From: Dehalococcoidia bacterium
GTDB taxonomy: Bacteria; Chloroflexota; Dehalococcoidia; GIF9; AB-539-J10
Length of the DNA stretch: 33,225 bases
NCBI GenBank assembly: GCA_030603485.1
Contig: JAUVXS010000002.1
Location: 1-33,225, forward strand
Reading direction: 5' to 3'
Shown here in pieces: positions 12,345 through 28,167 of the stretch. A program made the position numbers and the translations under genes. Each line of letters opens with the position of its first letter. Position 1 is the first letter of the stretch. The notes under the pieces were generated by a model, which made no database searches, was not told the DNA's origin, and worked only from the letters and a program-made list of their open reading frames with translations.

Positions 12345-12422
12345 AGGGGTGTGGCTCAGTTTGGCTAGAGCAGCGGTCTCCAAAACCGCAGGTCGCGGGT
12401 TCGAGTCCTGCCACCCCTGCCA
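12345..12422 (+). tRNA. tRNA-Trp (anticodon CCA), 3' CCA encoded
   Basis: Cloverleaf folded by hand: acceptor AGGGGTG/CACCCCT, D-arm GCTC/GAGC, anticodon stem GCGGT/ACCGC with loop CTCCAAA, T-arm GCGGG-TTCGAGT-CCTGC, discriminator G plus CCA. Confidence 0.9.
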
Positions 12423-12423
12423 G

Positions 12424-12506
12424 GCCGAGGTGGCGGAATGGTAGACGCGGCGGACTTAAAATCCGCTTCCTGCAAGGGAGTGTGGGTTCGAGTCCCTCCC
12501 TCGGCA
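12424..12506 (+). tRNA. tRNA-Leu (anticodon TAA), type II with a long variable arm
   Basis: Acceptor GCCGAGG/CCTCGGC, anticodon stem GCGGA/TCCGC with loop CTTAAAA, a long variable arm, T-loop TTCGAGT (one U-U mismatch in the T-stem), discriminator A. Starts 1 nt after tRNA-Trp. Confidence 0.88.
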
Positions 12507-13321
12507 GTAGCCAAAGTGGTAAGCAACTGGTAGGCAATTTCCTCAAGTCCAGACGGGAAGGTCTAAGTCCTCAGTCAATAGAGTTCTACGAAGGTTATCT
12601 GAGGCTTGCCAATACCGTCATAGGATTCCACATCACAGGTCAGGATATATCCCAATTCCTCAGCAATCTTGGCTGTAGCAATGGTGGCAAACATGCTTAC
12701 TACAGAGCCCTTAGAGCTTTCTACAACTGGTTATATTCCCCGAAAAGTGGCCATGGTCTAAATCCTCAGGATAATCCTATGCTGTTGGTGGAAAGTCCAA
12801 AGGTAGAAAGGAAGATACTACCGAGCCTGACAACGGAGCAGTTGGACTATCTCATAGACCAGACTGAATGTATCCGGGATAAGGCTATCATATCCTTGTT
12901 TGCTGACAGTGGGCTACGCTTATCGGAACTAGCCAATATTGACCAGGCTAACATTGACTGGCAACATCGGTTAATCAAGGTCGTTTGTAAAGGGAATAAG
13001 GAAGGACTTGCTCCCTTCGGTCAAAGGACTGAGAAGCTACTCAAGGAATGGCTATCACAACATCGTGCTGGTGGTAAGCTATGGGACATAAGAGAACGGG
13101 GAATAGCCTGGATGCTTTGGAGACTGGAAGCTAAGACAGGTCTTCCTTGTAATGCTCACACTTTCCGAAGGACATTTGCCAGCATCCTATCCAAGAGAGG
13201 GGTAGATTCCCTCCACATTATGAGGCTTGGCAGGTGGCAATCCCTGGCGATGGTAGACAGATACACAAGGTCAGTCCAGTTTGAGGATAGCCTTAAGCTC
13301 TATACCTCCATAATGGAGTAG
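12482..13321 (+). CDS. Tyrosine-type site-specific integrase
   Basis: SAM-like N-domain (SPQSIEFYEGYL...YYRALRAFYNWL). Catalytic boxes DSGLRLSEL (R), HTFRRTFAS (HxxR), LGRWQSLAMVDRYT (W...Y). The only canonical start before the N-domain is GTG 12482, inside the tRNA-Leu T-arm. Confidence 0.85.
   Translation: MGSSPSLGSSQSGKQLVGNFLKSRREGLSPQSIEFYEGYLRLANTVIGFHITGQDISQFLSNLGCSNGGKHAYYRALRAFYNWLYSPKSGHGLNPQDNPMLLVESPKVERKILPSLTTEQLDYLIDQTECIRDKAIISLFADSGLRLSELANIDQANIDWQHRLIKVVCKGNKEGLAPFGQRTEKLLKEWLSQHRAGGKLWDIRERGIAWMLWRLEAKTGLPCNAHTFRRTFASILSKRGVDSLHIMRLGRWQSLAMVDRYTRSVQFEDSLKLYTSIME
12518..12538 (+). promoter_or_regulatory. Paired GGTA(A/G)GCA motif next to attL (candidate arm-type recombinase site)
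   Basis: ggtaagcaactggtaggcaat matches 17557-17577 (ggtaagcagatggtaagcaat) at 18 of 21 positions. A third pair is at 13765-13794. Confidence 0.35.
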
Positions 13322-13322
13322 C

Positions 13323-13637
13323 TCAGGACATACCGAGACAAATTCTGAGTTTCAAATTCGAACCTGTTTCGCCCAAGACAGAGATAGACTCCCGCGCTAC
13401 ATCACATTCACCTTCAGGGTAAAGGATTTCGCCTCTCCTCAGGGCAAACTCCGCGCGACGGTCGGCTGGTCCAGGCGAGATTCCGAAGCTTGAGCGAAAA
13501 ACCTTCTCTCCTCGCAATGACAGGGGGGCGTCTTCCGTAATGACCAGTGGGAGTGTCATTGCCAGCAAAGCGCTGTAATCCATCGGCACGGTCGCTAGTT
13601 GCTCTTCGTCGCTGGTAGAATCATCTGTATTGTTCAT
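13323..13637 (-). CDS. Hypothetical protein (doubtful)
   Basis: 104-aa ORF convergent with the integrase. No SD and no recognisable motif. Confidence 0.25.
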   Translation of the reverse strand: MNNTDDSTSDEEQLATVPMDYSALLAMTLPLVITEDAPLSLRGEKVFRSSFGISPGPADRRAEFALRRGEILYPEGECDVARESISVLGETGSNLKLRICLGMS

Positions 13638-14017
13638 AGTACTAATGGACTATTACCTTTCTCCTAGTACTAGTCGCAAAAAAGGGGAAAATCCCTCGCT
13701 CCTCCAGTACTCCTGATTGACTTTCTTCCGAGGGGAGTAGCAATCCGTTGTGGATAGCTAAATTGGTAAGCACTTACCTTTGTGCTGGTAAGCAAAGGGT
13801 GGAGTCTCCCTACTTATCTCTTCTGAAAGGATAGGTATCTTCATCTCTGAGGACTACACCTACGAGCTAGCTATATGTGATACCCCCTACCCTTGCCCTC
13901 TCTCCTTCTCACCTACGCTCACCGAGCCAATATCTGCTCGTAGAGAAAATCCAGTCAGGCTTAGAATATTCGGGATTACATAATCAACTCAGGCTACGAG
14001 TGTGGTAAAATAGGAAT

Positions 14018-14557
14018 ATGGAAGAAACCTATTATATTTGGCAGATTATTCTCGTTGGGATTCTTGTTGCAGTCACTATATACTATGCTATTCAAACACA
14101 CCGTCAGGCTAACCTCCTCAAGAGACAGATGGATGAAACCCGCTATATCCACAATATAGCGACTCTGAAGCAATCTATAGAACAGATATACGAATGGGCA
14201 CAATACGGAGTTAATGAATACTGTATTCCTGGGCTTGGGCGTTTTGATAGAGGCAACTATCCTGTAAGTACAAAAGCTACAACACACTTGGTATTATCAG
14301 GTGCTAGGGCACTGGGCAATGCTTCGTATATCGGAGGCGATTTGTGGGATAATGTAAAGCAGGCATATGATTCTATGGAGACAGTAGTTGCATCTCTGGG
14401 GGTGGATACTACACTTGAACTTCTATCAGACTCAGAATATGAACGCCATATTGAGGATTTCCAGAAATCTTTACAAGCTCTTTTAGACAAATTCTCAGAT
14501 GTGATGGTGGCATGCCGTAATTTAATGGTTGGGTTAGACATGGAAACATACGGATAG
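14018..14557 (+). CDS. Hypothetical protein, N-terminal TM anchor plus helical domain
   Basis: 179-aa ORF. TM helix IWQIILVGILVAVTIYYAI. AT-rich island cargo. Confidence 0.5.
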   Translation: MEETYYIWQIILVGILVAVTIYYAIQTHRQANLLKRQMDETRYIHNIATLKQSIEQIYEWAQYGVNEYCIPGLGRFDRGNYPVSTKATTHLVLSGARALGNASYIGGDLWDNVKQAYDSMETVVASLGVDTTLELLSDSEYERHIEDFQKSLQALLDKFSDVMVACRNLMVGLDMETYG

Positions 14558-14752
14558 TTTTCTGATGCATTAGAATCCCTTTGTTTACAACCTTCCTCTT
14601 GCCCTCTCCAAATCCACCTAGCTTAGCTAGTCATCGGCTAATCATGACTTCATCCAAGATTAGTGGCTCTGAAGGACTACCAGAATCAAGCCAACTAAGT
14701 CTGTTGTGCCGTCTTACCTGTTCTTCTGTAATTTCCTTTAAATGTCCGTAGT

Positions 14753-15409
14753 CTAGCCCCGATAAGTACATATCATGAATAATTTATCTTTATCTTTGTA
14801 GAACATGAGCCATGTGATTGAGTTAGTAGGGTCATCCTTCATTGTGTTTCTCCAATATGTAACTACACCATTGCCTAAGTCCACCCTTTTTGCACCCTTT
14901 ATGGCTTCGTCAAGCGGAGGAGAAAGGAAACGCTCAGGTTTACCATTTGCGTAGTCCACGAGTATTTGTACATTTTCTGGCAATATAGCACCTGTGTCCA
15001 AGTAGTAAAGACCTTTCGCAATTTTACGCAAGACACGATTGATGACCTCTCCATCCATTTCTAATACCAGCGTACGACCAAGCAATGCACCAGACTCTGA
15101 TATTACTCTTGCTTTTCTTATGTATGACCTTATGGTTGGCTTCAACAATGGTCTACGACCTTTCAGGTCTGGGCGAATCCTCTCGTTCCAAATGCGGAAG
15201 CCAGGCTCATTTTCATAAGCCATTCCCGAAGCTAAAAAAACTCTGAATTTTTCCTCATCACTGGACAAAGCATTATTACATTCAGTACACGCAGGCAATG
15301 TTCTAAGATTGGCTGGCAAAGGTTTATTAAACAAGCTACTAGGGAAAAGATGGTCTCTAGTATCAGCTAGTTTAGAACCACAGAGATAGCACTTTTTGCT
15401 AATAGACAA
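14753..15409 (-). CDS. HNH-nuclease-like protein with an unknown C-terminal domain
   Basis: N-terminal CYLCG...TRDHLFP...LPACTECNN gives two CxxC pairs plus the His and Asn of a beta-beta-alpha-Me finger. TTG start with a GAAGGTGA SD. About 150 aa of unassigned C-terminus. Confidence 0.6.
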   Translation of the reverse strand: MSISKKCYLCGSKLADTRDHLFPSSLFNKPLPANLRTLPACTECNNALSSDEEKFRVFLASGMAYENEPGFRIWNERIRPDLKGRRPLLKPTIRSYIRKARVISESGALLGRTLVLEMDGEVINRVLRKIAKGLYYLDTGAILPENVQILVDYANGKPERFLSPPLDEAIKGAKRVDLGNGVVTYWRNTMKDDPTNSITWLMFYKDKDKLFMICTYRG

Positions 15410-15451
15410 GTTGTCACCTTCTCTTCAACAGCCTGTAAATCCATCTATCTA

Positions 15452-15649
15452 CTACCCATCAGGCAAAGTATACATGGTAATCGTAATGGTAGCACTTGCC
15501 GAGGAATTGCCTGTCTTGCTTACGCTACCAGTCACCTCATTATCAGGGATGCTGGTATCAGCAATAGCAATGCGAGTATCATTTAAGCCAAGTAGGACTA
15601 ACCCTACCAGAAGGATTGCAAGGGTGACTACAGTGACCAGGCTCTTCAC
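15452..15649 (-). CDS. Small hypothetical secreted or membrane peptide (doubtful)
   Basis: 65-aa ORF with a GTG start and signal-like LVTVVTLAILLVGLVLLGL. Lies 42 nt upstream of the HNH-like gene. Weak SD. Confidence 0.25.
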   Translation of the reverse strand: MKSLVTVVTLAILLVGLVLLGLNDTRIAIADTSIPDNEVTGSVSKTGNSSASATITITMYTLPDG

Positions 15650-15810
15650 TTCAACCCACTCTTAAATCAATTATAGGCTTGAATAGCTACAGAAGCAATA
15701 CCCTTGAAGGGTAAATGTGACCAAGTGCAAGGGAGCACCGCACTACGCTAAACCAGAACATGAGGAACGCTAGTGTTCAGCCTACGATGTTATATAATAA
15801 GGGAAGTAAA

Positions 15811-16614
15811 ATGACTTCACAAAGACCCAAGATTATCCATCACCAGAACAATTTAAGTGGGTATGTCGGTAACTGGCGTCTCTTAATGAATCAAATTTTG
15901 AAGGTGCAACCTCCTATTGATATTCCACGAGAACTAGTTTCTCTGGGTGACAATACCCATGATTTATCTGTAATGCTTTCATATCTGGACGCTAACCTGA
16001 CAATACTTGAGGAAACACCAGATGTAGCTGGTCAGCAAATTAACTATTTAGCTTATGCTGAGGCAAGGAGTTTCTTGAAGGCGTGTTATATGTTAGTCCG
16101 CATATTGTTTGATGATGTATCAGGGGTAATTAAGTATTTTTACGACAAGAAAGAACCAAATTCGGGAGTAACTAAAAGTTTTGATAAACTTCTTAGTAGA
16201 GCTAAGAATGGGAAATTGCCTGAAGACCTTTCTACACTACTCAAACAAACCATTGTAAATTTTCCTGAAATGAGAAACAGGAGAGTTGATTTGGAGCATT
16301 ATTATGAATCTCTTCTGATTTCTTTTAGGCACGATGAAGAAGGTAAAACCATTCTTGGACATTTCAGCACGAAGCAACGCCCTGCCAAAGAGTATGAAGA
16401 TATTAGGCAATACTTTGGTTCTGTTCTTTGCGAGTATCAGACTTTAATTGACAGTTTGCTTGACCATTTTGATGCCAAGTTCGTAGATTGGTACAGATTC
16501 AAACCGCACAGAGATTTAAATATTCTCCAGGGATACGCAGGCATTATGTTATGGTGGGCGTGCAAGTATGGTAACTACAGGCACAAAGACTTAGTAGTAA
16601 TTGAGAGTGATTAA
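15811..16614 (+). CDS. Hypothetical soluble protein (ORFan)
   Basis: Start placed at ATG 15811 (AAGGGAAG SD 5 nt upstream); the ORF is open from 15760. No motif recognised. Confidence 0.55.
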   Translation: MTSQRPKIIHHQNNLSGYVGNWRLLMNQILKVQPPIDIPRELVSLGDNTHDLSVMLSYLDANLTILEETPDVAGQQINYLAYAEARSFLKACYMLVRILFDDVSGVIKYFYDKKEPNSGVTKSFDKLLSRAKNGKLPEDLSTLLKQTIVNFPEMRNRRVDLEHYYESLLISFRHDEEGKTILGHFSTKQRPAKEYEDIRQYFGSVLCEYQTLIDSLLDHFDAKFVDWYRFKPHRDLNILQGYAGIMLWWACKYGNYRHKDLVVIESD

Positions 16615-16711
16615 TACTGACACTAGACAACAATTCTGTATGCTCTATACTACTGCGAGGGATAGAATCATAATATATCGAGAGAAACGGAAAGGAGGTT
16701 AAGCAAGGAAG

Positions 16712-17275
16712 ATGTCGAATAGTTTACAACCAGAGCAAATTACGGACGAGCAGCGACGAGTATGGTTAACCGAATACCAAGTTTGTCAACAACATAATGA
16801 CGCTATTGGGTCACAAGCCTGGGTGAGCACAACTATATTTCTAACGATAAATGTGGCTTTGTTGGGTGGTCTCGTCTATACACTCATGACAAACTTAGGA
16901 AGCAGCAGTTCAGAATTACGACTCATAATATTAATCAGCTTCATAGCACTAAGCGTAGGAATACTCTTGATTTTAAAGAAATGGGTGAATTGGTTAAAGA
17001 GAATGAGATTTACGGCATCAATTAATTATGAAAGGATGGGTCAAATAGAGCGATTCCTGGGAATGAGGAAACATACAATGTGCTACGAGCTTGACGAAGA
17101 ATATCGCCAAGTGAAGACATCAGCCGCAAGAAAAGAGTTTAATAAAAGGAATGAACCCTTCAAATACTTCAAGGCAAGTGGATTTGATGGACTAATGTTC
17201 ATAGCTAAAACATTAATGGGACTATGGTCTTTATCAATCTTACTATTGTTGATTGCACTAACTATTTCACCCTAG
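16712..17275 (+). CDS. Hypothetical 3-TM membrane protein
   Basis: Strong GGAAAGGAGG SD. TM helices WVSTTIFLTINVALLGGLVYTL, LRLIILISFIALSVGILLIL and LMGLWSLSILLLLIALTI. Lies 97 nt after the preceding ORF on the same strand. Confidence 0.6.
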   Translation: MSNSLQPEQITDEQRRVWLTEYQVCQQHNDAIGSQAWVSTTIFLTINVALLGGLVYTLMTNLGSSSSELRLIILISFIALSVGILLILKKWVNWLKRMRFTASINYERMGQIERFLGMRKHTMCYELDEEYRQVKTSAARKEFNKRNEPFKYFKASGFDGLMFIAKTLMGLWSLSILLLLIALTISP

Positions 17276-17342
17276 CGAGCTTGGGGGGGAAGGTTAAGGA
17301 AGGGGGGCGTAGCCCCCATCCCAGGAGTTGGGTTACTTCTCC

Positions 17343-17483
17343 CTAAGATACTGCCCCTGTCCAAATTTCTTCAATTACTCCCTCTTTACACTTGGGGCAG
17401 GTTTCTCCGACCATCTCAAGTTCCGTTTTGACATTCTTTGACTTGCACTCGGGACATTCTCTCGTGTCTTTCTTCCGCTTCAA
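17343..17483 (-). CDS. Possible small zinc-ribbon protein (below the ORF-track size cut-off)
   Basis: My own translation: LKRKKDTRECPECKSKNVKTELEMVGETCPKCKEGVIEEIWTGAVS*. Only TTG starts are available (17483, 17495 or 17501), and the SD is weak. Confidence 0.3.
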   Translation of the reverse strand: MKRKKDTRECPECKSKNVKTELEMVGETCPKCKEGVIEEIWTGAVS

Positions 17484-17556
17484 CCTAACATACAAAGTCA
17501 ACCTATCACTACACGGGAAGAGACCACCTAGTGATAGGGTTGCTCAAGCTCTAAAC

Positions 17557-17577
17557 GGTAAGCAGATGGTAAGCAAT
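17557..17577 (+). promoter_or_regulatory. Paired GGTAAGCA motif next to attR (candidate arm-type site)
   Basis: See 12518-12538. Confidence 0.35.
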
Positions 17578-17592
17578 ATTGAAGCTAATAAG

Positions 17593-17649
17593 GGACTTAA
17601 AATCCGCTTCCTGCAAGGGAGTGTGGGTTCGAGTCCCTCCCTCGGCAGT
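17593..17649 (+). repeat. attR: 57-bp copy of the tRNA-Leu 3' part (anticodon stem to 2 nt past the discriminator)
   Basis: Identical base for base to 12452-12508. Confidence 0.92.
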
Positions 17650-17716: not shown

Positions 17717-17745
17717 TTGACTTCTGCGATATTGCGAATTATACT
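17717..17745 (+). promoter_or_regulatory. Sigma-70-like promoter for the 463-aa gene
   Basis: TTGACT, a 17-nt spacer, then TATACT. GGAGG SD at about 17762 and ATG at 17774. Confidence 0.45.
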
Positions 17746-17773
17746 CTTTTGATTACGTCAACGGAGGCAAAGC

Positions 17774-19165
17774 ATGGCAGGAGTCGATAAGGCGCTAGAA
17801 GCAACAGAAACCCCACAAGTCATAAGCGGCATGGAGAAAGATGGAATGGTGATGAAATTGGTGGCTGAAATGCTGGAGGGGAAGATTATTGAACTCAGAC
17901 CCCAGCTTGATTTCACTACTGAGCTGGGCTTCACATATCCAGCCGCTGAGCAAACACTAAAGGTCACAAGTAAGGAAGCAGCATTAATTCTGGAATCCCT
18001 GGCTGACAAAGGTATATTAAGGAAGAACTTTTTTGACAGGCTCCTTCGTTGTCCCCGCTGCCAGTCAATAAATATAAGACCAACTATCCACTGCCCTAAA
18101 TGCGGCTCGGGAGATATCGTCCAGGGCAGAGTCCTCGAGCACTTGGCCTGCAAGTATGGGGGCCTTGAAGGTGAATTTCTAGTCAGGGGTAGATATGTAT
18201 GCCCCAGGTGTAAAGTGGAACTGCGGACTCTAGGCGTCGACTACCAGAGCCAGGGAGTGCTGCGCAAGTGTCGTGATTGTGGCGAGATATCCAGTGCGCC
18301 GCTGATAAAATGGCGCTGTCTGAAATGTTCCACGCTTACCGATGTGGGTGGAGTTGGCGAAGTGACTATCTACTCGTACAGCCTTGATGAGGCGAAGAGA
18401 AATTGGCTGGAATTTGAAATTCAGCCTAAAGTGCAGTTCCTTGAATTCTTGAGGCAGCACGGGTATGAAGTAACGCAAAATGCCAGAATGAAGGGAAAGT
18501 CGGGGGCAGAACATTGCATAGATATACTGGCTACCAAGGATGACGGCGTCGTTACCCATAGTATCGCTATCGGGATTGAGATTGCCAGGGATAAGGTAGG
18601 ATTGGACAGGATATTGGACTTTGATGTCAAAGCCTATGATAGCGGCATCCACGATAAGGTAATGATTATCAGCCCCGGGTTGGGCGAAGAGGCGGAGAAA
18701 TTTGCCAGCTACCAGAGAATAAAGGTGCTTGAACCCAAGGACCTGGAGATAGTGCTGACTGGTGGTCCCCAGCCCGGCCGGGAAATAATAAAGGAGCCCT
18801 TTGAATTTAAGTCCAAATCACAGCTTATAGAATACCTGGAGAAACAGGGCTACACGGTAAAGAAAAATGCTAAAGTCGAAGGCCGGTCTGGCGCTGCCCA
18901 TAACATAGACATACTGGCTACCAGGGATGAGGGCATCATTACTCATCGTATTGCTATTGGCATCAAGGTGGGTAAGAAGCCGATGGGGCTGGATAAGGTA
19001 TTTGACTTCGACGACAAGGCTTATGATGCAGGTATTATGGACAAGGTCCTTATTGCCGTTCCTGGACTCACTAGGGAGGCCAGGCAGTTTGCGAAGCGTC
19101 AGGGAATAAGGGTCTTTGAGGCCGGGCAAATGAAGCCATCTGGAGAGGGGAACCCTGAATCCTGA
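17774..19165 (+). CDS. Multi-zinc-ribbon protein with two tandem PD-(D/E)xK (Mrr/NucS/YraN-like) nuclease-fold domains
   Basis: 463 aa. A wHTH-like segment (KEAALILESLADKGIL). Five CxxC pairs between aa 93 and 185. Two repeats of about 100 aa (aa 219-321 and 348-450) are about 54% identical, each with G.SGA.H.IDILA...IAIGI(E/K). Confidence 0.6.
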   Translation: MAGVDKALEATETPQVISGMEKDGMVMKLVAEMLEGKIIELRPQLDFTTELGFTYPAAEQTLKVTSKEAALILESLADKGILRKNFFDRLLRCPRCQSINIRPTIHCPKCGSGDIVQGRVLEHLACKYGGLEGEFLVRGRYVCPRCKVELRTLGVDYQSQGVLRKCRDCGEISSAPLIKWRCLKCSTLTDVGGVGEVTIYSYSLDEAKRNWLEFEIQPKVQFLEFLRQHGYEVTQNARMKGKSGAEHCIDILATKDDGVVTHSIAIGIEIARDKVGLDRILDFDVKAYDSGIHDKVMIISPGLGEEAEKFASYQRIKVLEPKDLEIVLTGGPQPGREIIKEPFEFKSKSQLIEYLEKQGYTVKKNAKVEGRSGAAHNIDILATRDEGIITHRIAIGIKVGKKPMGLDKVFDFDDKAYDAGIMDKVLIAVPGLTREARQFAKRQGIRVFEAGQMKPSGEGNPES

Positions 19166-19396: not shown

Positions 19397-20215
19397 ATGA
19401 TGCAAAAGATTAGTCGGAATGTCTATGCTGAAAATAGCTTTCGAGGGTGCAATCCTGGCTTTGTTGTCACCAGTGAAGGAGTAGTGATGATTGATACCCC
19501 CCAGATGCCAGCAGATGCAATATGGTGGCGGGATGAGATTGCCAAACAAGGTCCGGTTCGCTATTTGATAAACACCGAGCCGCATGGTGACCATTTCGCC
19601 GGTAACTACTTCTTCGAAGGCACGGTAGTAGCTCACCAGGGCACCAGAGAAGCAATCTTAGCTGCCTCCGTGGAGCAGTTCAAGGAGCGTCTTAAGCAGT
19701 CTGACCCTGACAGCCTTCCTCTGGTCAAGAATTACAGCTATCGACCTCCAGCCATTACTTTTTCCGAGCAAATGACCCTCTACGTGGGCAATCACACTTT
19801 CCAGCTTATTAACCTCCCTGGACACACGCCCTATCAGATAGCTGTCTATATTCCTGAGGAGAGGGTAGTATTCACCTCGGACAACGTTTTTTGCAGAGTG
19901 CAGGCCTGGCTTCACGAAGCTCTGCCCCACAAGTGGCTGGATTCCTTGAGGCGGCTTGAGCAACTGGAGGCGGATGTGCTGGTGCCCGGGCACGGTAGTA
20001 TCTGCGACCCGAGCTACATTCGGGAAATGGGCGCGTTTATTCAGGACTGGATAGACGCAGTCAGTGGCGCCATTGGGCAGGGGATGAGCCTGGAAGAAGC
20101 TCAAGAGAAGATCTCATTTCTTGACCGCTACCCTATGGAACCAGGTAGCGAGCCGATGGCTCAGTTCGTACAGTACATGAACGTGGCACGCCTGTATCAA
20201 GTGCTCAAGAAGTAA
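19397..20215 (+). CDS. MBL-fold metallo-hydrolase
   Basis: INTEPHGDHFAGN (variant HxHxDH), NLPGHTP and VPGHG motifs. GGAGG SD. Confidence 0.85.
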   Translation: MMQKISRNVYAENSFRGCNPGFVVTSEGVVMIDTPQMPADAIWWRDEIAKQGPVRYLINTEPHGDHFAGNYFFEGTVVAHQGTREAILAASVEQFKERLKQSDPDSLPLVKNYSYRPPAITFSEQMTLYVGNHTFQLINLPGHTPYQIAVYIPEERVVFTSDNVFCRVQAWLHEALPHKWLDSLRRLEQLEADVLVPGHGSICDPSYIREMGAFIQDWIDAVSGAIGQGMSLEEAQEKISFLDRYPMEPGSEPMAQFVQYMNVARLYQVLKK

Positions 20216-20425
20216 ACAGCGATCTGGTATGCTTGTTCCGAAAAACAGGAGACATTTGCTTTGTCACCATGGTCGCCATGATCGCTGCTGCCTTTTGTGC
20301 AAATGGGGCTAGCCCCTGAAGAAGCCATCCACCGGCAGAAGTCTGAGGAGAGGTGCCAAAATAACAACAGGTGAGGCGAGTATCTTAATTATGGGATTTG
20401 TAGTAATCGAATCACTTGGGTCTTT

Positions 20426-20451
20426 GCCCCGATTTCATCGGGGCTTTCTTT
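20426..20451 (+). terminator. Rho-independent terminator
   Basis: GCCCCGAT-ttc-ATCGGGGC followed by TTTCTTT. Lies about 210 nt downstream of the MBL gene. Confidence 0.5.
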
Positions 20452-20564
20452 GATAACACGGGGATACTTACCAGGCGCCCATACCCCGGAATTTCCCTAT
20501 AAACATTCATAGTGCAACAATTATAGCGTCCTTTCACAACTGATGTGTCACCCCTCTATCTAAA

Positions 20565-21701
20565 CTAACTCAGCCCCAGTTCAATGGCTATCACTTCTCT
20601 GTGCAAGTCAGTGTCGCCGGCAGCAAACTCTGCCGCCTTGACACGGCGGTAATAGAGCCCAATATCATGGTCCATGGTATATCCGATAGCCCCATGAGCA
20701 GCAATGGCTTCAATGCAAATTCGCTGGTAAGCTTCATTGGCTTTAGCCTTGGCTGCGGAAATCTGCCAGGGCGATGGTGAACCGACGCTTATCCCCCACG
20801 CTGCCTGATAAAGCAAATACTGAACTGCCTCTACATCAATCAACATGCCAGCCAGTTTGTGCTGTATCGCTTGAAAAGAGCCGATTGGCCGGTCAAACTG
20901 AATTCGTTCCTTGGCATAGCTACTGGTCATGTCCAAAACAGCCTGACACGCTCCGCATATCTCAGCGCACTTCAGCACAGCAGCCCGTTGTAATATAAAG
21001 TCCACTACGTCCCAGCCGTTGCCTATCTTGCCCAGGATATTGTCTTTTGGCACCGCTACTCTATCAAAGCTGACTTTGAATTGCCTGTCACCGCCTATAG
21101 TCGGGATCGCCTCCATCTTCACATTTGGCTCCCTGGCATCCACTATAAACAGTGTGATTCCATCCTCGGTTCTTTTCCCCTTTCCGGTCCTGCCGGCAAC
21201 CAGGATATAATCAGCCACATGGGCATCGGCAACAAAAAGCTTACATCCATGGAGAACATAATTGGTCTCCTCCGATACAGCACGAAGTTTTACCTCAGAA
21301 GCTTTATATCTGCCTGACGACTCGGCTAAAGCGAAAGTCCAGATAGCCTCGCCTCTAGCTATTTGTGGCAGAAACTTAGTTTTTTGCTCACTGCTTCCAT
21401 ATTCAAATAGAGGCAGAGCACAAAGGGCGATAGTGGAGAAGAAAGGACCGGGCAGGATATTTCTTCCCATCTCCTCCATCAAGACAACCAGGTCCATAAA
21501 GCTGCCAGCCATGCCGCCATATTCTTCTGGAAAGATGAGTCCTATCCACCCCAGTTCTGCCATAGCGCGCCATAATTGCGGGTCATAGCCTTTACCATCT
21601 TTGTCCATCTCCCTGACTTTAGCTTTGGGACATTCCTTTGCCAGAAAATCTCTGGCCAAAATCCGCAGCATCTCTTGCTCTTCTGTTAAACTGAAATCCA
21701 T
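20565..21701 (-). CDS. Acyl-CoA dehydrogenase family protein (possibly a non-catalytic partner subunit)
   Basis: Full-length ACAD fold. Ala replaces the MCAD-type Glu (EFAAGDTDL versus IYEGT). Gln replaces the IVD-type Glu (FILQR). Confidence 0.85.
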   Translation of the reverse strand: MDFSLTEEQEMLRILARDFLAKECPKAKVREMDKDGKGYDPQLWRAMAELGWIGLIFPEEYGGMAGSFMDLVVLMEEMGRNILPGPFFSTIALCALPLFEYGSSEQKTKFLPQIARGEAIWTFALAESSGRYKASEVKLRAVSEETNYVLHGCKLFVADAHVADYILVAGRTGKGKRTEDGITLFIVDAREPNVKMEAIPTIGGDRQFKVSFDRVAVPKDNILGKIGNGWDVVDFILQRAAVLKCAEICGACQAVLDMTSSYAKERIQFDRPIGSFQAIQHKLAGMLIDVEAVQYLLYQAAWGISVGSPSPWQISAAKAKANEAYQRICIEAIAAHGAIGYTMDHDIGLYYRRVKAAEFAAGDTDLHREVIAIELGLS

Positions 21702-21813
21702 AATAACCCTTTAGAAAATCTACCTTTCATTACCCTGAACATCATGGAGAGTTTATATTCTCCGCTCTACTCACAACGGCAGAGAAATGTTATTAAGCAA
21801 ACTCCAAAACTTT

Positions 21814-23016
21814 TCAATATGATTTGGGTAATCCCAGTCCAAATTGCGCAATTATACTCTTTTCGATTTCAGCAGTGCCAGCCGCGATTGCCATACCGGG
21901 AAAACCCAGATACGCACCTTGTATTGTGCCGTTGAGTTTGGACCATTCGGAATCCGGGTCAACCTGAGAATATATGCCTAAAAGCTCCGCCCCGGTAATA
22001 GCCACCCGTCTCATTACCTCGTCACTCATTATCTTGTTCCTTGAGGACTCATAGACAGGAATTTGACCTTGACTTATCCGCCAGGCGATCTGGAAGGCGA
22101 ACATCCTCAGTACTTCCAGGTCAATAGCCAGATCAGATAGCTTGGCACGAATCACAGGATTCTGCGACAGCGGCTTTCCTTCATGCTCGGTTTGAGCAGC
22201 GTACTTAACTAGCTCTTCTAATGCCCTCTTAAAACCACCGTAGGTGATAGGCGCTAAGCTGCGCCGCTCAAAGGCCAGTGCCTGCATAAGGTGGTACCAA
22301 CCTTTGTTTTCCTCCCCAACCAAGTTGGAAGCCGGCACTCTGACATTATCGAAAAACATTTCATTGAAGTGATGCCGCCCGTAATAGTTTAAAATAGGAT
22401 TGACTGTAACACCCGGGCTCTTCATGTCCACAATAAAGATACTGATTCCCTGGTGTTTCTTAGCGGCATTGGGGTCTGTTCTGGCGGCCAGCCAGCACCA
22501 TCTTGCCTGGTGAGCAGCACTTGTCCACACCTTTTGCCCATTTATAATATAGGCATCTCCATCCCTCACCGCCCGCGTCTGAAGATTGGCAAAGTCTGAG
22601 CCAGCATTTGGTTCACTGTAACCCGTGCACCAGACACCATCTTTTTCACCCGAGGCAATTAACGGCAAATATTTTTTTCTTTGCTCTTCGGTACCGAACA
22701 TCATCAGGCAGGGTCCTACCCATTGTGTGCCGCTTATACCCATCCCTGCCCCCGGTATACCCCAGTAGGATATCTCCATTTCGTATACTGTTTGTTCCCA
22801 GAGAGAAGCACCACGTCCGCCATATTCCTCCGGCCAGCTCATAACGAGCCAACCCCTCTGGGCTAGCTTTTTGGATATGGATATTTCGAACTCAAAATCT
22901 CTGCATTCTCCATCAATTGGAGTGCTGCGCCTCCAGTCTGGAGGTAATTCGACTTCGGCAAACCTGCGAATTTCTTCCTTCAGAGCTAGTTCTTTTTCAC
23001 CCAGTCTAAAGTCCAT
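21814..23016 (-). CDS. Acyl-CoA dehydrogenase family protein
   Basis: ACAD fold (YSEPNAGSD, GQKVWTS). The C-terminal IAAGTAEI lacks the MCAD-type Glu, but AFERRSL keeps a Glu at the IVD-type position. Confidence 0.85.
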   Translation of the reverse strand: MDFRLGEKELALKEEIRRFAEVELPPDWRRSTPIDGECRDFEFEISISKKLAQRGWLVMSWPEEYGGRGASLWEQTVYEMEISYWGIPGAGMGISGTQWVGPCLMMFGTEEQRKKYLPLIASGEKDGVWCTGYSEPNAGSDFANLQTRAVRDGDAYIINGQKVWTSAAHQARWCWLAARTDPNAAKKHQGISIFIVDMKSPGVTVNPILNYYGRHHFNEMFFDNVRVPASNLVGEENKGWYHLMQALAFERRSLAPITYGGFKRALEELVKYAAQTEHEGKPLSQNPVIRAKLSDLAIDLEVLRMFAFQIAWRISQGQIPVYESSRNKIMSDEVMRRVAITGAELLGIYSQVDPDSEWSKLNGTIQGAYLGFPGMAIAAGTAEIEKSIIAQFGLGLPKSY

Positions 23017-23120
23017 TCTTACCTTCCTAGATATTGATTGTCCAGGATGTAACGCCTTTGCCCTTCTTATATCGAAAGCGGCCAGTCAAATTGAGCCCGA
23101 TTATAGCACACAGCCAGCCA

Positions 23121-24017
23121 TTACTTTGGTTGGGGTGGGTCCGGATTTACCAATTCCCAGGTCATCGTTATTGGCATGAAGTTGAATAGCTCATCAATTG
23201 TCCATCCGCCAGCTTTAACCAGTTGTTTCTCCATTACCGGCTCTGAATAGAGCCCGATTCGGCCTGTTTGTACATAAAATGCCCGCCCATTGACATTAGC
23301 AGCGTCATCGGAGGCGAGCCATACTACCATAGGAGCAATATCCTCAGGCTTCATCTCTTCAAGCCTGGCTATATCCTCTGTCCGAGCTTTCATCATCTCC
23401 TCACTGAGGGTAAGCCGAGTCCCGGCAGTAGGCCGAATACAATTACACGTTACACCGTACCGGCCCATGTCCCTCGCCACTTTTCTTGTCAATCCAACGA
23501 TTCCCTCTTTCGCTGCACCGTAGTTAGCCTGCCCGTAAGTAGTGGCATATAGACCTGCTATAGATGAGGTATTTATTATTCGTCCATACCTCTGCTGACG
23601 GAAGAAGGGACTCACCGCTCTGATGGTATAGAAATGTCCAAAGAGATGCACTTTGAGCACCAAATCCCAGTCTTCCTCGCTCATGTTGAACACCATTCTA
23701 TCACGCAGAATGCCAGCATTGTTGACCAGTATGTCAACCTTATTAAAGTTGTCCATGGCAGTCTTTACAATGTTCTCGGCACCTTGTAGGGTGGTCACCG
23801 AGTCGTGGTTGGCAACTGCCTGTCCACCGAGTTTCTTAATCTCTGCTACCACCTCGCCCGCTGGTGAAGTTGATGCTCCAGTGCCATCTCTAGCGCCTCC
23901 AAGGTCGTTCACGACGACTTTAGCACCCTCCGATGCTAAAGCCAGAGCTTCTCCTCGTCCAATACCTCGTCCCGCACCGGTAACTATAGCTACCTTGCCT
24001 TGTAGTCTATCGCCCAT
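23121..24017 (-). CDS. SDR oxidoreductase, MFE-2-type (3R)-hydroxyacyl-CoA dehydrogenase-like
   Basis: GKVAIVTGAGRGIGRGEALALASEGAKVVVNDLGG ... VNNAGILRD ... YGAAK closely parallels the N-terminal dehydrogenase domain of peroxisomal multifunctional enzyme 2. Confidence 0.8.
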   Translation of the reverse strand: MGDRLQGKVAIVTGAGRGIGRGEALALASEGAKVVVNDLGGARDGTGASTSPAGEVVAEIKKLGGQAVANHDSVTTLQGAENIVKTAMDNFNKVDILVNNAGILRDRMVFNMSEEDWDLVLKVHLFGHFYTIRAVSPFFRQQRYGRIINTSSIAGLYATTYGQANYGAAKEGIVGLTRKVARDMGRYGVTCNCIRPTAGTRLTLSEEMMKARTEDIARLEEMKPEDIAPMVVWLASDDAANVNGRAFYVQTGRIGLYSEPVMEKQLVKAGGWTIDELFNFMPITMTWELVNPDPPQPK

Positions 24018-24113
24018 TTTTACCTCCTTGAATTTTGTTTTTTAAAGACACTGGCTCGATTCAGTATTTCCAGGAAACTAACTCTAAATAACTATCAAAA
24101 CCAATACTCTCGC

Positions 24114-24584
24114 TTATTTCGCGCTCCGTATGGGTAAGGCAACCAGAGCTGAGCCAGGTGTCGTCTTTTCTCCGTTTCCATTCTCCACCCAAATCTCGCA
24201 CTCAACAAGGTGCTCACCGCCCTCATCATATTTCTTGGTCACCTTGCCTTTACACCAACAGGTTTCGCCATCATGCGGCTTTTCCATCGTCTTCATTTTC
24301 CGGGGATAATCCATGCCGCGGTATTGGCAGGACAATTTCTTGAGTTTCCCCTTCTCTCCAATCCAGTCAGTCATCAATTGTCCTAGCCAGGCACGCTTAA
24401 GCGCTCCGTGTACAATGGGGGCACCTACGCCCATAGCTTTAGCGAAATCATCTTCATAATGCAAAGGGTTAAAATCTCCCGATGCTCCCGCCCATTGGAC
24501 TAACATGCGACTTGTAGCAATTTTAGCCAATGGTGTTATCTCACTATCTACTCTAACATCCTCATAATAAACTTGTTTAGCCAT
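24114..24584 (-). CDS. MaoC-family (R)-specific enoyl-CoA hydratase, catalytic hot-dog subunit
   Basis: Hydratase-2 motif ASGDFNPLHYEDDFA ... HGAL. Start moved to ATG 24584 (GGAGGAGAG SD directly upstream) from the TTG at 24611. Confidence 0.85.
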   Translation of the reverse strand: MAKQVYYEDVRVDSEITPLAKIATSRMLVQWAGASGDFNPLHYEDDFAKAMGVGAPIVHGALKRAWLGQLMTDWIGEKGKLKKLSCQYRGMDYPRKMKTMEKPHDGETCWCKGKVTKKYDEGGEHLVECEIWVENGNGEKTTPGSALVALPIRSAK

Positions 24585-24617
24585 CTCTCCTCCAAAAAAT
24601 AAAGTAGCCAAAACAGG

Positions 24618-25091
24618 TTAGAACTGAATCAATGTCGACCGGCTTTTGAGCGCCACATTGCCAGTTTGGTTTACAAAAGTAATCTCCACTGTGGTGAACA
24701 TAGTCTTGCCCAGTCTGGTTTCGCGCTCGGTTATGCTGGAAATTCTAGTTGTGGCAGTTAATACATCGCCAGCGCCAACAGGGTCAATAAATTCGAATTC
24801 AACACCTCCATCGAGAACCCTTGGAGGCGCTCCAGCTTTTGCTAGAGTCTCAAACAGTTTGTCCGTAGGGCGGTCAGCCTTGACTGGCCAACCCGTGAAA
24901 CCTGGAGGAGCCAATAACCGACCATGCCTGGTTTTACTGGCGTAATCCGGGTCATTGTACAGGGGGTTCGGGTCACCTATAGCCTGTGCATATCTCTGGA
25001 TTGCTCCTTCTTCGACCTTGAAGATGATAGGCCCTGAGGACACGCCTATCAACTTCCGCAGTTCATCGGTAATCAAACTACCTTCCGGCAT
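24618..25091 (-). CDS. MaoC_dehydrat_N-type hot-dog protein (non-catalytic hydratase partner)
   Basis: EEGAIQRYAQAIGDPNPLYND motif. 157 aa. Directly upstream of the catalytic MaoC gene. GGAGG SD. Confidence 0.8.
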   Translation of the reverse strand: MPEGSLITDELRKLIGVSSGPIIFKVEEGAIQRYAQAIGDPNPLYNDPDYASKTRHGRLLAPPGFTGWPVKADRPTDKLFETLAKAGAPPRVLDGGVEFEFIDPVGAGDVLTATTRISSITERETRLGKTMFTTVEITFVNQTGNVALKSRSTLIQF

Positions 25092-25117
25092 AGCTAGCCT
25101 CCAAGATTTAATTTCTT

Positions 25118-26320
25118 CTACAATCCTATAATAGCAACACTAACGATGTTCATGGCTGGAAAACCGCCCATATTGTGAGTTAGACCCAGCCTGGGGTTCT
25201 TGATTTGCCGTTCTGGCAGCTGGGCTTTGCCCTGCAATTGTTTATACATTTCATACAGCATCCTGAGGCCAGAGGCACCAATAGGATGCCCGAAGCACTT
25301 CAATCCACCATCGGGCTGGATAGGCTGCGGTCCATCAAGATTGAAACGTCCAGCCTCGATGTCTTCCTTGACTTTCCCCCTGGGGCTGAATTGCAGATCT
25401 TCCATAGTCACCGCCTCAGTTATGGAGAAGCAATCGTGTACCTCAGCCATGCTTATCTCTTCACGTGGGTTCTTTATCCCCGCCTCCTTATAAGCCAGCA
25501 TACCAGCACGGTAACCGGTCTCAACATGAGCTCCATCCCATTTGGTATACATCAATTCCTCGCCTGAACTTAAAGCAATTTGTAGTGTCTTAACATATAC
25601 GGGATCTGGCCGAAATTTCTTGGCCATGTCAGCCCTGGTTACGATTGCAGCCGCTGCGCCATCACTGACTCCGCAGCAATCAAAAAGCCCCAGAGGCCAG
25701 GCTATTATAGGTGCATTTATTATCTGTTCCTCAGTTACTTCGCGGCGCAGATGCGCCTTCGGGTTCCGGGCTCCATTATAGTGGCTTTTGGCTGACACTT
25801 TAGCCAGCATTCTCTTGCCCTCCTCGGGACTGAGGCCATATACAGAAAAGTATCTGGTTGCCAGCATGGCAAAGGCTCCAGGAGCGGTCAATTTAGGCAT
25901 AATCAGTGCATTTTTTGTTCCCATAAGACCAGGATTACCTGGGAGACCACCGTATCCCGTATCTTTGAGCTTTTCTACACCCAGAGCCAGAGCGATATCA
26001 TAAGCTCCTGAAGCTACACCGTAACATGCACCCCTGAAGGCTTCTGTGGCAGTAGCACAAAAATTTTCCGTCCTGGTGACCGGAATAAAGGGCAACTTCA
26101 AGGCCAAAGCCAAAGATGTAGCCCCTTTTCCTACGCTTTGTTCCTCAAAATGCACGCCGAACCAGGCCGCATTGATGTCCTTTTTTTCTATACCCGCGTC
26201 CTCGATGCATTCCTTATAAGCATCTACCATAAGGTCATCTGCACTCTTATCCCATAGCTCTCCAAACTTAGTGCAACCCATCCCTATAATAGCAACCTTG
26301 TCTTTAATACCTTCTGCCAT
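25118..26320 (-). CDS. SCP-x/archaeal-type thiolase (lipid-transfer-protein-like)
   Basis: VAIIGMG, nucleophile context NFCATATEAF, VHDCFSITE, GHPIGASGLRM, THNMGG. Start moved to ATG 26320 (GGAGGGAG SD). Confidence 0.85.
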   Translation of the reverse strand: MAEGIKDKVAIIGMGCTKFGELWDKSADDLMVDAYKECIEDAGIEKKDINAAWFGVHFEEQSVGKGATSLALALKLPFIPVTRTENFCATATEAFRGACYGVASGAYDIALALGVEKLKDTGYGGLPGNPGLMGTKNALIMPKLTAPGAFAMLATRYFSVYGLSPEEGKRMLAKVSAKSHYNGARNPKAHLRREVTEEQIINAPIIAWPLGLFDCCGVSDGAAAAIVTRADMAKKFRPDPVYVKTLQIALSSGEELMYTKWDGAHVETGYRAGMLAYKEAGIKNPREEISMAEVHDCFSITEAVTMEDLQFSPRGKVKEDIEAGRFNLDGPQPIQPDGGLKCFGHPIGASGLRMLYEMYKQLQGKAQLPERQIKNPRLGLTHNMGGFPAMNIVSVAIIGL

Positions 26321-26359
26321 TTTTGCTCCCTCCATAGATTTTATTAATTCCCACTGTGG

Positions 26360-27802
26360 TCAAGCACGTATTGGCATTGCCTTCCATGAATAACCGTGAA
26401 CACCACCTGACTCATCAACATATCGTCTGCGGAAGGTCATCTCTACCGGCATGCCTACTTTAACGGAATCCAGGTCACAATCAACAAAATCAAACCAAAA
26501 CCTGCCACCACCATCAAAATCCACCAGGCCATATACTGAAGGTGGGTCGATACTGGCAGCTAGATTATCGCCGGTATAAGTAAATACGACGCCTTTCTTA
26601 TCCGAAAAGCGATAATCTTCCATCTGGTCAATGGCTCCGCAATCAGGATTTACACATACTCTTTGATATGGATATTGTGGCGTGCCGCATTTTTTGCACT
26701 TCGATCCACAAAGAGCCAAAACTACTTTCCGCTCCCTGAACAACGCCGACATCGGTGTGCGAATGCTTATCTCGCCACGCATACCTAAGTCCATAGGTGC
26801 TAAATTTCTGAAGGCAAGGTATTTTTCATAGCTGGTAAGCTCCTTTTTCGAGTTCAAGTGTTTCTTGACCGCCCTCTTGCCCTTTATATTCTCTATTCTT
26901 TCAGTAACCTGGAAAAACAGTGCGTCGCTACCGTTCCCAAAGCTGGCGACCAATATTTTGTCGCCTGGCTTTGCGTCTTCCAGTGCCGCTACCAACATCA
27001 TTAGAGGCGAAGCTGACCCAGTGTCACCGACTGTGCTAAGCAATGTATCCTGAAGCTGACCAGGGTCAGCACCCAATTGCTTGGCTATAGCTCCATGCCC
27101 TCGTGCATACAGTCCGGGATAAGCTATCTTGGTAAAGTCCTTGATGTTCAGATTGTATTTCTTCAATAGTCCAGAAATTACCTCCGGAATAAATTGACTA
27201 TAGCCAGAATCGCGAATGAATCTATCTTCCCAGGCATGCTCAAATTTTTCTCCACTTGCTCTCCATCGGTCGGGGAAATCGTAGGAAACAGAATACGAAC
27301 CTTCAAAAGTAGCAATCACATCATCACTGCCAACAAGAAGTGACGCAGCGCCATCACCATAGAGAGACTCTTGAGGACTGCCCGGTTTGCTCAAACGGCA
27401 ATCAGAAGCACAGACGAGAATATTACTTGACATCTCCCCCCTTACAGTATCAAATGCGGAAAGCAGTGCAGTAGTCCCTGACTTCGTAGAGCCTATGAAA
27501 TCAGCAGTCCGCATATTTGCCTGTAAATCAAGGGCAGTAGCTATCAGAGCTGAATTTTGCCTTACCATATAAGGCTGACTGGTAGTGGCAAGATACAGAC
27601 CATCAACTATCTCCCGTTTCATACCACTTAAGCAATCAATTCCTGCGGCTACTGCCATGCTGAGAGCATCCTCATCGTGATTAGCGACTGCATTTTCACC
27701 GGGCGGTGGGAACGTCCCCAGGAACCCAACAGCCGTGAAGATAGTGTTGTGATTCATTCGATACCGTGGGATATAAGCTCCGTAAGACTTGATGCCGACC
27801 AT
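26360..27802 (-). CDS. HMG-CoA-synthase-like domain fused to a DUF35 Zn-ribbon/OB-fold domain
   Basis: N-terminal MVGIKSYGAYIPRYR matches the HMGCS/KAS-III fold. C-terminal CGSKCKKCG...CVNPDCG zinc ribbon plus an OB segment (GVVFTYT...VGMPVEMTF). GGAGG SD. Confidence 0.75.
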   Translation of the reverse strand: MVGIKSYGAYIPRYRMNHNTIFTAVGFLGTFPPPGENAVANHDEDALSMAVAAGIDCLSGMKREIVDGLYLATTSQPYMVRQNSALIATALDLQANMRTADFIGSTKSGTTALLSAFDTVRGEMSSNILVCASDCRLSKPGSPQESLYGDGAASLLVGSDDVIATFEGSYSVSYDFPDRWRASGEKFEHAWEDRFIRDSGYSQFIPEVISGLLKKYNLNIKDFTKIAYPGLYARGHGAIAKQLGADPGQLQDTLLSTVGDTGSASPLMMLVAALEDAKPGDKILVASFGNGSDALFFQVTERIENIKGKRAVKKHLNSKKELTSYEKYLAFRNLAPMDLGMRGEISIRTPMSALFRERKVVLALCGSKCKKCGTPQYPYQRVCVNPDCGAIDQMEDYRFSDKKGVVFTYTGDNLAASIDPPSVYGLVDFDGGGRFWFDFVDCDLDSVKVGMPVEMTFRRRYVDESGGVHGYSWKAMPIRA

Positions 27803-27981
27803 TGATTAACCTCCTGATATAAGCTTCTTGGAACCAAGAAACTATGGCATGGAAGCTGAATAATGTCAAACCCTGACAGGCTCTGTTCTCCCACAATCAA
27901 CAATTGAAATCCTACACGAGAGTGCTTGGTAATAGCTCAGAATGACAAAGGAACGCTATTAAACAATCTCCCACACACTGT

Positions 27982-28010
27982 TTGACACGCTTTCCAAGCC
28001 ATGTTATCAT
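27982..28010 (+). promoter_or_regulatory. Sigma-70-like promoter with an extended -10
   Basis: TTGACA, a 17-nt spacer ending in TGt, then TATCAT. About 155 nt upstream of the ATG at 28168, in the divergent intergenic region. Confidence 0.4.
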
Positions 28011-28167
28011 GAAGCCCCGGGGTGATCCCCTCTCATGGAAAGTGCAGCAGGAATGCCAGCTCTGTGGCATACTATTAGTAATTGTATTTAATCGAACCTA
28101 TAGGATGTGGTAAATTATATGCAAATTTCAGTAAAAAATAGACTATTAAAATAGAAGGAGGTGACAA

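Follow-up and report, generated by a model that had tools for sequence, protein, structure and literature searches.

A 33,225-nucleotide stretch of chromosomal DNA from a Dehalococcoidia bacterium (GenBank assembly GCA_030603485.1, contig JAUVXS010000002.1, positions 1 to 33,225; hereafter the window) carries, just outside an integrated island, a gene for a 463-amino-acid (aa) protein in which an N-terminal TackOD1 domain is followed by two tandem domains of the restriction-endonuclease fold. The relatives of this gene mostly lie beside type IV pilus genes, and the protein may well be a non-catalytic component of that system. The open reading frame (ORF) is the one originally predicted from the letters alone, runs from an ATG at 17774 to 19165 on the plus strand, and is listed in Table 1 with its start signals, domains and flanking repeat.

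Start signals and coding sequence

The original prediction began the feature at 17717, which is the -35 hexamer of a promoter-like site and not the start of the ORF. Its claim that the gene has its own promoter-like signal stands in that the site is kept in orthologs, where the block is near-identical in loci L002, L005, L007, L011, L029, L087 and L088 and the sequence farther upstream diverges; the region holds four promoter-type matches against 3.0 expected, so that one match alone does not exceed chance. Between the -35 and -10 hexamers lies a 10-bp palindrome with the consensus GC(A/G)ATATTGC, found about 48 nucleotides (nt) before the ATG as perfect GCAATATTGC or in a one-mismatch form in L002, L003, L005, L006, L008, L010, L012, L023 and the window. 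This palindrome may be an operator. When sought elsewhere in the loci it was found only at the gene's own promoter and at no pilin promoter, and it thus lends no support to a pilin operator.

The ratio of nonsynonymous to synonymous substitution rates (dN/dS) of the window copy against four orthologs is 0.29 to 0.42, which indicates purifying but not extreme selection, and every conserved family residue is kept. Unusually strong conservation was considered from the 71 to 99% identity of the top matches and rejected: dS is only 0.16 to 0.49 and dN/dS 0.3 to 0.4, so the high identity comes from close relatives under ordinary constraint. There is no second copy of the gene in the window, and an exact search of the contig index for its protein gave no entry. 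An NCBIfam scan of the protein gave nothing above threshold, and a PDB sequence search with the whole protein returned only chance zinc-ribbon matches (E about 0.75).

Table 1. Sequence features of the TackOD1 gene and of the repeat that precedes it
Feature	Position	Strand	Basis or remark
attR, 57-nt copy of the tRNA-Leu(taa) 3' end	17593..17649	+	perfect direct repeat with 12452-12508
Promoter-like -35/-10 (TTGACT, 17 nt, TATACT)	17717..17745	+	consensus scan, 10/12 positions matched
Near-palindrome GCGATATTGC, possible operator	17726..17735	.	inside the promoter spacer
Shine-Dalgarno GGAGG	17763..17767	+	6 nt before the ATG; read from the sequence; conserved in orthologs
Coding sequence, TackOD1 and two Mrr_cat-like domains	17774..19165	+	ORF, Pfam, homolog search, AlphaFold2 model
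Winged-helix-like N-terminal part of TackOD1 (tentative), aa 24-92	17843..18049	+	predicted topology
Cys-rich core of TackOD1, aa 93-185	18050..18328	+	three predicted ribbon-type metal sites
Restriction-endonuclease-fold domain 1, aa 215-330	18416..18763	+	Pfam Mrr_cat, Foldseek; canonical ExK absent
Restriction-endonuclease-fold domain 2, aa 342-455	18797..19138	+	best Pfam Mrr_cat stretch aa 351-449; canonical ExK absent

Domain organization of the protein

TackOD1, to which the original prediction had likened the layout, is confirmed far above threshold by Pfam (PF18551; 128.5 bits against a cutoff of 32; E = 2.9e-37), with aa 26-204 covering model positions 10-188 of 188. The domain was described as "Thaumarchaeal output domain 1" (arCOG06883), a module of about 200 aa with five CxxC motifs and one HxxC motif that is found, mainly in TACK archaea, stand-alone or following REC domains, that had been noted earlier in thaumarchaeal type IV pilus loci, and whose function was called obscure (Galperin et al. 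2018, PMC5847659). The window protein matches this published signature in full: the five CxxC pairs lie exactly where the original prediction had them (C93/96, C107/110, C143/146, C166/169 and C182/185), and they are joined by H123xxC126, which it had overlooked. The total of 11 Cys and one His is enough for three tetrahedral metal sites, and all 12 candidate ligands are invariant in 86 homologs (37 to 91% identity), the set to which the residue counts below refer. Spacing and predicted hairpins suggest the pairings C93/C96 with C107/C110, H123/C126 with C143/C146, and C166/C169 with C182/C185. The core, which is basic (pI 8.7), would thus bind metal, most likely zinc.

For the part preceding this core, AlphaFold2 models predict 22 disordered N-terminal residues, helices at 24-34, 56-62 and 66-78, and then a strand at 82-92. 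A separate model of aa 1-215 reached a predicted local distance difference test (pLDDT) score of 84.6, and a Foldseek search with it found no significant structural relative, zinc core included; its winged-helix matches (Stf76, Z-alpha, MarR and TFIIE) were weak and non-significant, all with E of at least 0.47. The winged helix-turn-helix-like segment of the original prediction therefore stands for its compatible topology and not for structural similarity, and is kept here as tentative only. In the helix at the recognition position, Glu68 and Glu74 are invariant, and none of the conserved residues is basic. Pfam gave no Response_reg match and hence no N-terminal REC domain.

The C-terminal half consists of two repeats, aa 219-321 (nt 18428-18736) and aa 348-450 (nt 18815-19123), which agree at 56 of 103 residues (54%; 63% at the DNA level), an identity equaled by none of 2,000 shuffles. 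Both show the signature G.SGA.H.IDILA...IAIGI(E/K), in line with the pair of approximately 103-aa repeats with a nuclease-fold signature that had been proposed. The proposed restriction-endonuclease-like fold was likewise recovered by two routes. Pfam Mrr_cat matches the protein in two stretches with 51.8 bits against a cutoff of 21, and the AlphaFold2 model of the full protein, built with the 86 homologs (pLDDT, 85.9; predicted template modeling score, 0.68), gave Foldseek matches that are all of the restriction-endonuclease fold, with 1y88 (AF1548) first (E = 9.2e-7), followed by EndoMS, Cdn1/Can2, MspJI, AspBHI, FokI and BamHI. There was no Pfam match to Mrr_N in the window protein.

Catalytic positions of the tandem repeats

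To place the catalytic register, a profile from 30 diverse repeat copies was aligned to AF1548, whose motif is D...ECK; this alignment is marginal (E = 0.059), and the top Foldseek match agrees with it. D250 and D379 align with the Asp of the AF1548 IDVVA strand, and the E-C-K of AF1548 falls on A265-I266-G267 in repeat 1 and on A394-I395-G396 in repeat 2. Neither repeat therefore holds a complete catalytic motif, as originally predicted: the Asp is kept, and ExK is A-I-G in both. The further proposal that the repeats are complementarily degenerate and form one composite active site did not hold, as the residues read as GIE and GIK sit two positions past the canonical ExK register and the positions concerned are variable. 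Position 269 is Leu in 34 homologs, Glu in 22, Ala in 11, Val in 8 and Lys in 6; position 398 is Leu in 36, Glu in 25, Met in 12, Ile in 8 and Lys in 2. Close orthologs have IGIE in repeat 2 where the window has IGIK, and K398 is a lineage-specific substitution, the family having Leu or Glu at this position. E246 is also variable, and the equivalent Glu of repeat 2 is present in 54 of the 86 homologs. Given the A-I-G shared at the ExK positions and the variation at E246, E269 and K398, the two repeats are degenerate in the same pattern and are not complementary halves.

The same loss extends to 696 domains of the superfamily, in which the canonical E position is occupied by Ala, Gly or Val and the canonical K position by Gly or Asp; Lys was not among the five commonest residues at the latter position in any group. 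Conserved across the superfamily instead are S243, G244, H247, D250, K286, D289 and P301. The catalytic Asp at the D250 position is itself lost in the first domain of some copies fused to PilB, and D284 is Phe in Bathyarchaea. From these alignments, classical nuclease chemistry in the repeats looks unlikely, and the non-catalytic role that the original prediction had left as an option is favored by the loss of ExK in both. A triad like that of tRNA-splicing endonucleases (Y231, H247 and K286) was tried as a substitute site and rejected, position 231 being mostly Phe or Leu in Bathyarchaea.

Distribution and architectures of the family

At the level of 90% clusters, more than 970 proteins match, and the top 120 are full-length, 71 to 99% identical and endowed with the same Pfam domains; at the 50% level there are 2,401 matches, and for 152 of these E is below 1e-30. 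When one genome per species was scanned, 136 relatives were found, and the 80 best loci all belong to metagenome-assembled genomes of Dehalococcoidia/Chloroflexota. The family is typical of Dehalococcoidia. The phage genome collection gave no match to the protein, and the relatives in plasmid records are all distant and mostly lack nuclease domains.

Relatives combine TackOD1 with one, two or three nuclease-like domains, the single-domain form of approximately 326 aa being Bathyarchaeal. Proteins of 600 to 980 aa with the order REC-(DZR)-TackOD1-nuclease-like are common, and REC-TackOD1 forms without a nuclease-like domain occur as well. The tandem nuclease-like domains also occur free, as proteins of approximately 250 aa, or are followed by MshEN and a T2SSE ATPase. 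Neither domain family is new, and precomputed annotations already show the fused architecture, but no member is characterized: the original statement that no protein of this architecture has been characterized agrees with the literature searched, where the function of TackOD1 is called obscure (PMC5847659). The bacterial pilus linkage, the module shared with PilB and the uniform loss of ExK are absent from that literature.

Gene neighborhoods in relatives

The gene neighborhoods of homologs, a survey that the original prediction had suggested, provide the key context, a link to type IV pili that could not be seen from the letters alone. Pilus genes of one homolog locus were used as seeds together with a prepilin-motif scan, and pilin, T2SSE ATPase and PilM genes were sought in all loci. 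Among the 31 non-duplicate loci flanked by 5 kb or more on each side, 28 have such genes within 5 kb; L002, L045 and the window do not, and in the 33 kb of the window no pilin, T2SSE or PilM gene was found at all. Four gene orders recur. The TackOD1 gene may be followed 100 to 900 nt downstream, on the same strand, by a pilin gene and then by a convergent PilT-PilM block; it may stand between ATPase and pilin genes in a one-strand series PilM-ATPase-TackOD1-pilin with gaps of 1 to 110 nt; it may precede by 0 to 36 nt the gene for a T2SSE ATPase of 518 to 533 aa, PilB by its size; or it may be followed by four paralogous ORFs of 131 to 141 aa and then by a PilB of 787 to 802 aa. The N terminus of this long PilB carries two domains homologous to the window repeats (E = 1e-20 to 1e-31); this fusion of tandem dead-nuclease domains to MshEN-T2SSE ATPases is seen in loci L077-L080 and in seven representative clusters. 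Among Bathyarchaeia homologs, a T2SSE gene and two T2SSF genes adjoin in two of three loci. Rfam searches of the window and seven homolog loci found only tRNAs and no riboswitch in the long spacers between gene and pilin.

The four paralogous ORFs that precede the long PilB gene (L089, 11625-13756; L090, 12246-14499) show weak, sub-threshold matches to MAPKK1_Int and Roadblock/LC7 and may be MglB-like regulators of the pilus system.

TackOD1 is also found away from pilus loci. On plasmids or chromids of alpha-proteobacteria, a TackOD1 protein of 417 to 465 aa is encoded first in an operon (L092, 7686-11301; L093, 7518-11212; L094, 4548-8409), its stop codon overlapping or abutting the start of a gene for a processive-type GT2 glycosyltransferase resembling chitin or cellulose synthases; the third gene is annotated as HlyD family in L092 and L093 and as a hypothetical protein in L094. 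Haloarchaeal TackOD1 genes lie near genes for response regulators and HalOD1 genes. TackOD1 is thus repeatedly found next to machinery for building or exporting surface polymers, with GT2 as a second, independent association.

Chromosomal position of the window gene

In relatives, a cluster of seven tRNA genes (Ala, Arg, Trp, Leu-gag, Gly, Cys and Leu-taa) directly precedes the gene. In the window, an island of approximately 5.2 kb (12452-17649) with a tyrosine integrase (12482-13321) is integrated in tRNA-Leu(taa), and the perfect 57-nt direct repeat that brackets it bears out the original placement of the gene just outside attR. The copy at 12452-12508 forms the 3' part of tRNA-Leu-taa, and the start of the gene lies 125 nt past attR. 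Since relatives place the gene directly after tRNA-Leu(taa), it is native to this chromosomal position, and the island was inserted between gene and tRNA. Downstream follow a metallo-beta-lactamase-fold gene, which is also directly downstream in L002, and an acyl-CoA oxidation cluster, both of which are found in the 90%-identical relatives too. The window copy has thus kept its ancestral place, and its pilus neighbors are replaced by metallo-beta-lactamase-fold and fatty-acid oxidation genes.

The tRNA clusters themselves were compared between the window (12345-12506) and L002, L005, L007, L011, L013, L029 and L056. In the window, tRNA-Trp is directly followed by tRNA-Leu(taa); either the three intervening tRNAs were lost or the region was rearranged.

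Function of the protein

To a cytoplasmic, non-catalytic regulatory or adaptor role in the Dehalococcoidia type IV pilus (T4P) system we give about an even chance. The TackOD1 module, with its winged-helix-like unit and three Cys4/Cys3His ribbon sites, would be the signal-receiving or target-binding part, and the two C-terminal dead nuclease domains would serve as an interaction module for docking to the pilus motor, a part assigned to them because the same tandem has repeatedly been fused to PilB in evolution. Metal binding, physical contact with PilB, PilT or PilM and the direction of regulation are what we infer. Supporting this role are the domain identities, the loss of ExK, the linkage through four gene orders and the fusion to PilB and, further, the REC-(DZR)-TackOD1-nuclease signaling fusions, the Bathyarchaeia loci and the archaeal pilus loci of PMC5847659. 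The absence of mobile or defense traits and the intact, selectively constrained window copy (dN/dS about 0.3) also count in its favor. Several points weigh against it. The support from linkage and fusion is indirect, and no pilus genes lie within 10 to 17 kb in the window, the 90%-identical L087 and L088, L002 or L045, where the protein would either act on a distant cluster or have a wider role. Pilus genes are also missing from one Bathyarchaeia locus and from the haloarchaeal loci, and alpha-proteobacterial TackOD1 pairs with a GT2 glycosyltransferase and an HlyD-like protein instead. Finally, a DNA-binding regulator would agree equally well with the winged-helix-like unit and with the palindrome conserved in the promoter of the gene itself.

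A DNA-binding transcription regulator is indeed the main rival, possible if somewhat unlikely. Its winged-helix-like unit and basic zinc-ribbon core would bind operators of pilin or pilus genes and of the gene itself, and the dead nuclease domains would act as dimerization or effector-sensing modules. Besides the N-terminal topology, the basic core and the promoter palindrome, this proposal can draw on REC-TackOD1 proteins, which resemble response regulators with an output domain, and on the frequent position of the gene upstream of pilin, where the gap of 100 to 900 nt could hold the pilin promoter. However, the structural matches to MarR, Stf76, Z-alpha and TFIIE are non-significant, the helix at the recognition position has invariant acidic residues in place of conserved basic ones, and the palindrome is not found at pilin promoters; moreover, a regulator of this kind leaves unexplained both the tandem module fused to PilB and the 0- to 36-nt spacing to the ATPase gene. 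A nuclease that is active through a non-canonical site, made up of S243/G244, H247, D250, K286 and D289 and their repeat-2 equivalents, is a doubtful, quite improbable alternative; such an enzyme might process DNA or RNA in pilus-mediated DNA uptake. The fold is a true restriction-endonuclease fold, the PD Asp, the His three residues earlier and the Lys/Asp pair in the next helix are conserved across the superfamily, and PD-(D/E)xK enzymes are known in which catalytic residues have migrated. Nevertheless, both repeats have Ala for the canonical Glu and Gly for the canonical Lys, and the frequent loss of the D250 Asp in first domains fused to PilB makes this alternative less likely, as does D284 being Phe in Bathyarchaea. 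The helix that follows strand 3 contains K286 and D289, and in this fold it would be expected to pack opposite the classical active-site face. Relatives, moreover, match NA-iREase1 (PF22722), the Pfam "inactive REase" family: P0122 passes with 33.4 bits against a threshold of 27, and P0123 falls short with 22.3.

That the protein is a stand-alone Mrr-like (type IV restriction) or other anti-phage defense protein tied to the neighboring island is scarcely credible. What could suggest it are the Mrr_cat domains, the short distance to attR, a weak PADLOC match (PDC-S02; E = 2.3e-4) and one homolog that a source labels "restriction endonuclease." The gene nevertheless lies outside the island and holds the same position after tRNA-Leu(taa) in island-free relatives, the catalytic motif is missing, the phage collection and plasmid records give no close relative, and the neighbors in relatives are pilus genes and not defense genes. 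PADLOC and PHROGs gave no significant matches to the protein; together with the absent phage match and the synteny after the seven-tRNA cluster, this means that the gene is neither mobile nor defense-like, and a defense or phage origin was rejected. Identity with the type IV restriction enzyme Mrr was rejected as well, given the absence of Mrr_N and of the catalytic motif, the pilus neighbors in relatives and the lack of a significant PADLOC match. The label "restriction endonuclease" for such genes is probably wrong.

The window protein shares with Mrr_cat (PF04471) and AF1548 (PDB 1y88) the fold, the GxSG...D..A motif of strand 2 and the C-terminal helix-strand pattern; unlike them, it has A-I-G for ExK, lacks Mrr_N and, in its relatives, stands in a pilus-related and not a restriction context. 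With NA-iREase1, the NACHT-associated inactive restriction endonuclease, it has in common a restriction-endonuclease fold reused non-catalytically inside signaling proteins, but it does not itself match this family at E of up to 1 and has no NACHT or STAND partner. It shares with the TackOD1 proteins of Galperin et al. (PMC5847659) the domain, its five CxxC and one HxxC motifs, the stand-alone and REC-fused forms and the T4P link; that paper covers archaeal stand-alone, REC- and REC-wHTH- forms, whereas the window protein is bacterial and has two C-terminal dead nuclease domains that are unmentioned there.

A functional analogy can also be drawn to receptor modules of the MshEN and PilZ type in PilB/MshE ATPases and glycan synthases. 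MshEN and PilZ bind cyclic di-GMP (c-di-GMP). Such modules gate their machine, and, like TackOD1 and the dead-nuclease tandem, they are accessory modules attached to or placed beside pilus ATPases or GT2 synthases; the tandem lies directly N-terminal to MshEN in PilB, and TackOD1 genes stand beside both kinds of machine. TackOD1 and the dead nuclease domains have, however, no sequence or fold relationship to MshEN or PilZ. An unlikely but broader proposal is that TackOD1 and the dead-nuclease tandem constitute an unrecognized class of receptor-adaptors that sense metal, a redox change or a small nucleotide and act directly as on/off switches of envelope-spanning polymer machines. Sensing would take place at the Cys11His cluster or in the conserved non-canonical S-G...H..D...K..D pocket, and the machines would be the pilus ATPases in Dehalococcoidia and archaea and the GT2 glycan synthases in alpha-proteobacteria. 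If true, this class would parallel the action of PilZ and MshEN for c-di-GMP.

Type IV pili serve adhesion, motility, DNA uptake and possibly electron transfer, and almost nothing is known of their control in Dehalococcoidia, Bathyarchaeia and Thaumarchaeota. Dehalococcoidia are widespread, mostly uncultured bacteria that are important in subsurface carbon and organohalide cycling. The family is a testable candidate for a pilus regulator common to bacteria and archaea and would offer a first functional handle on TackOD1. It would also add a further case of a restriction-enzyme fold reused non-catalytically, here inside a pilus motor ATPase.

Neighboring genes

The integrated island, which is possibly a small defense island, holds an HNH-domain protein (14753-15409, minus strand) with weak PDC-M01B/PtuB matches, a 284-aa protein without a family match (15760-16614) and an 8xMP-like membrane protein (16712-17275). 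A putative gene just inside attR, an ORF of 52 aa (17343-17501, minus strand), encodes two CxxC pairs and gives sub-threshold zinc-ribbon matches.

On the other side of the TackOD1 gene, the metallo-beta-lactamase-fold gene and a beta-oxidation-like gene set occupy 19397-28938. The set comprises two acyl-CoA dehydrogenases, an SDR, two MaoC-like hydratase subunits, a thiolase-like gene, a ChsH2-type OB/zinc-ribbon protein and a 3-hydroxyacyl-CoA dehydrogenase, and resembles clusters for the degradation of steroid or branched-chain side chains.

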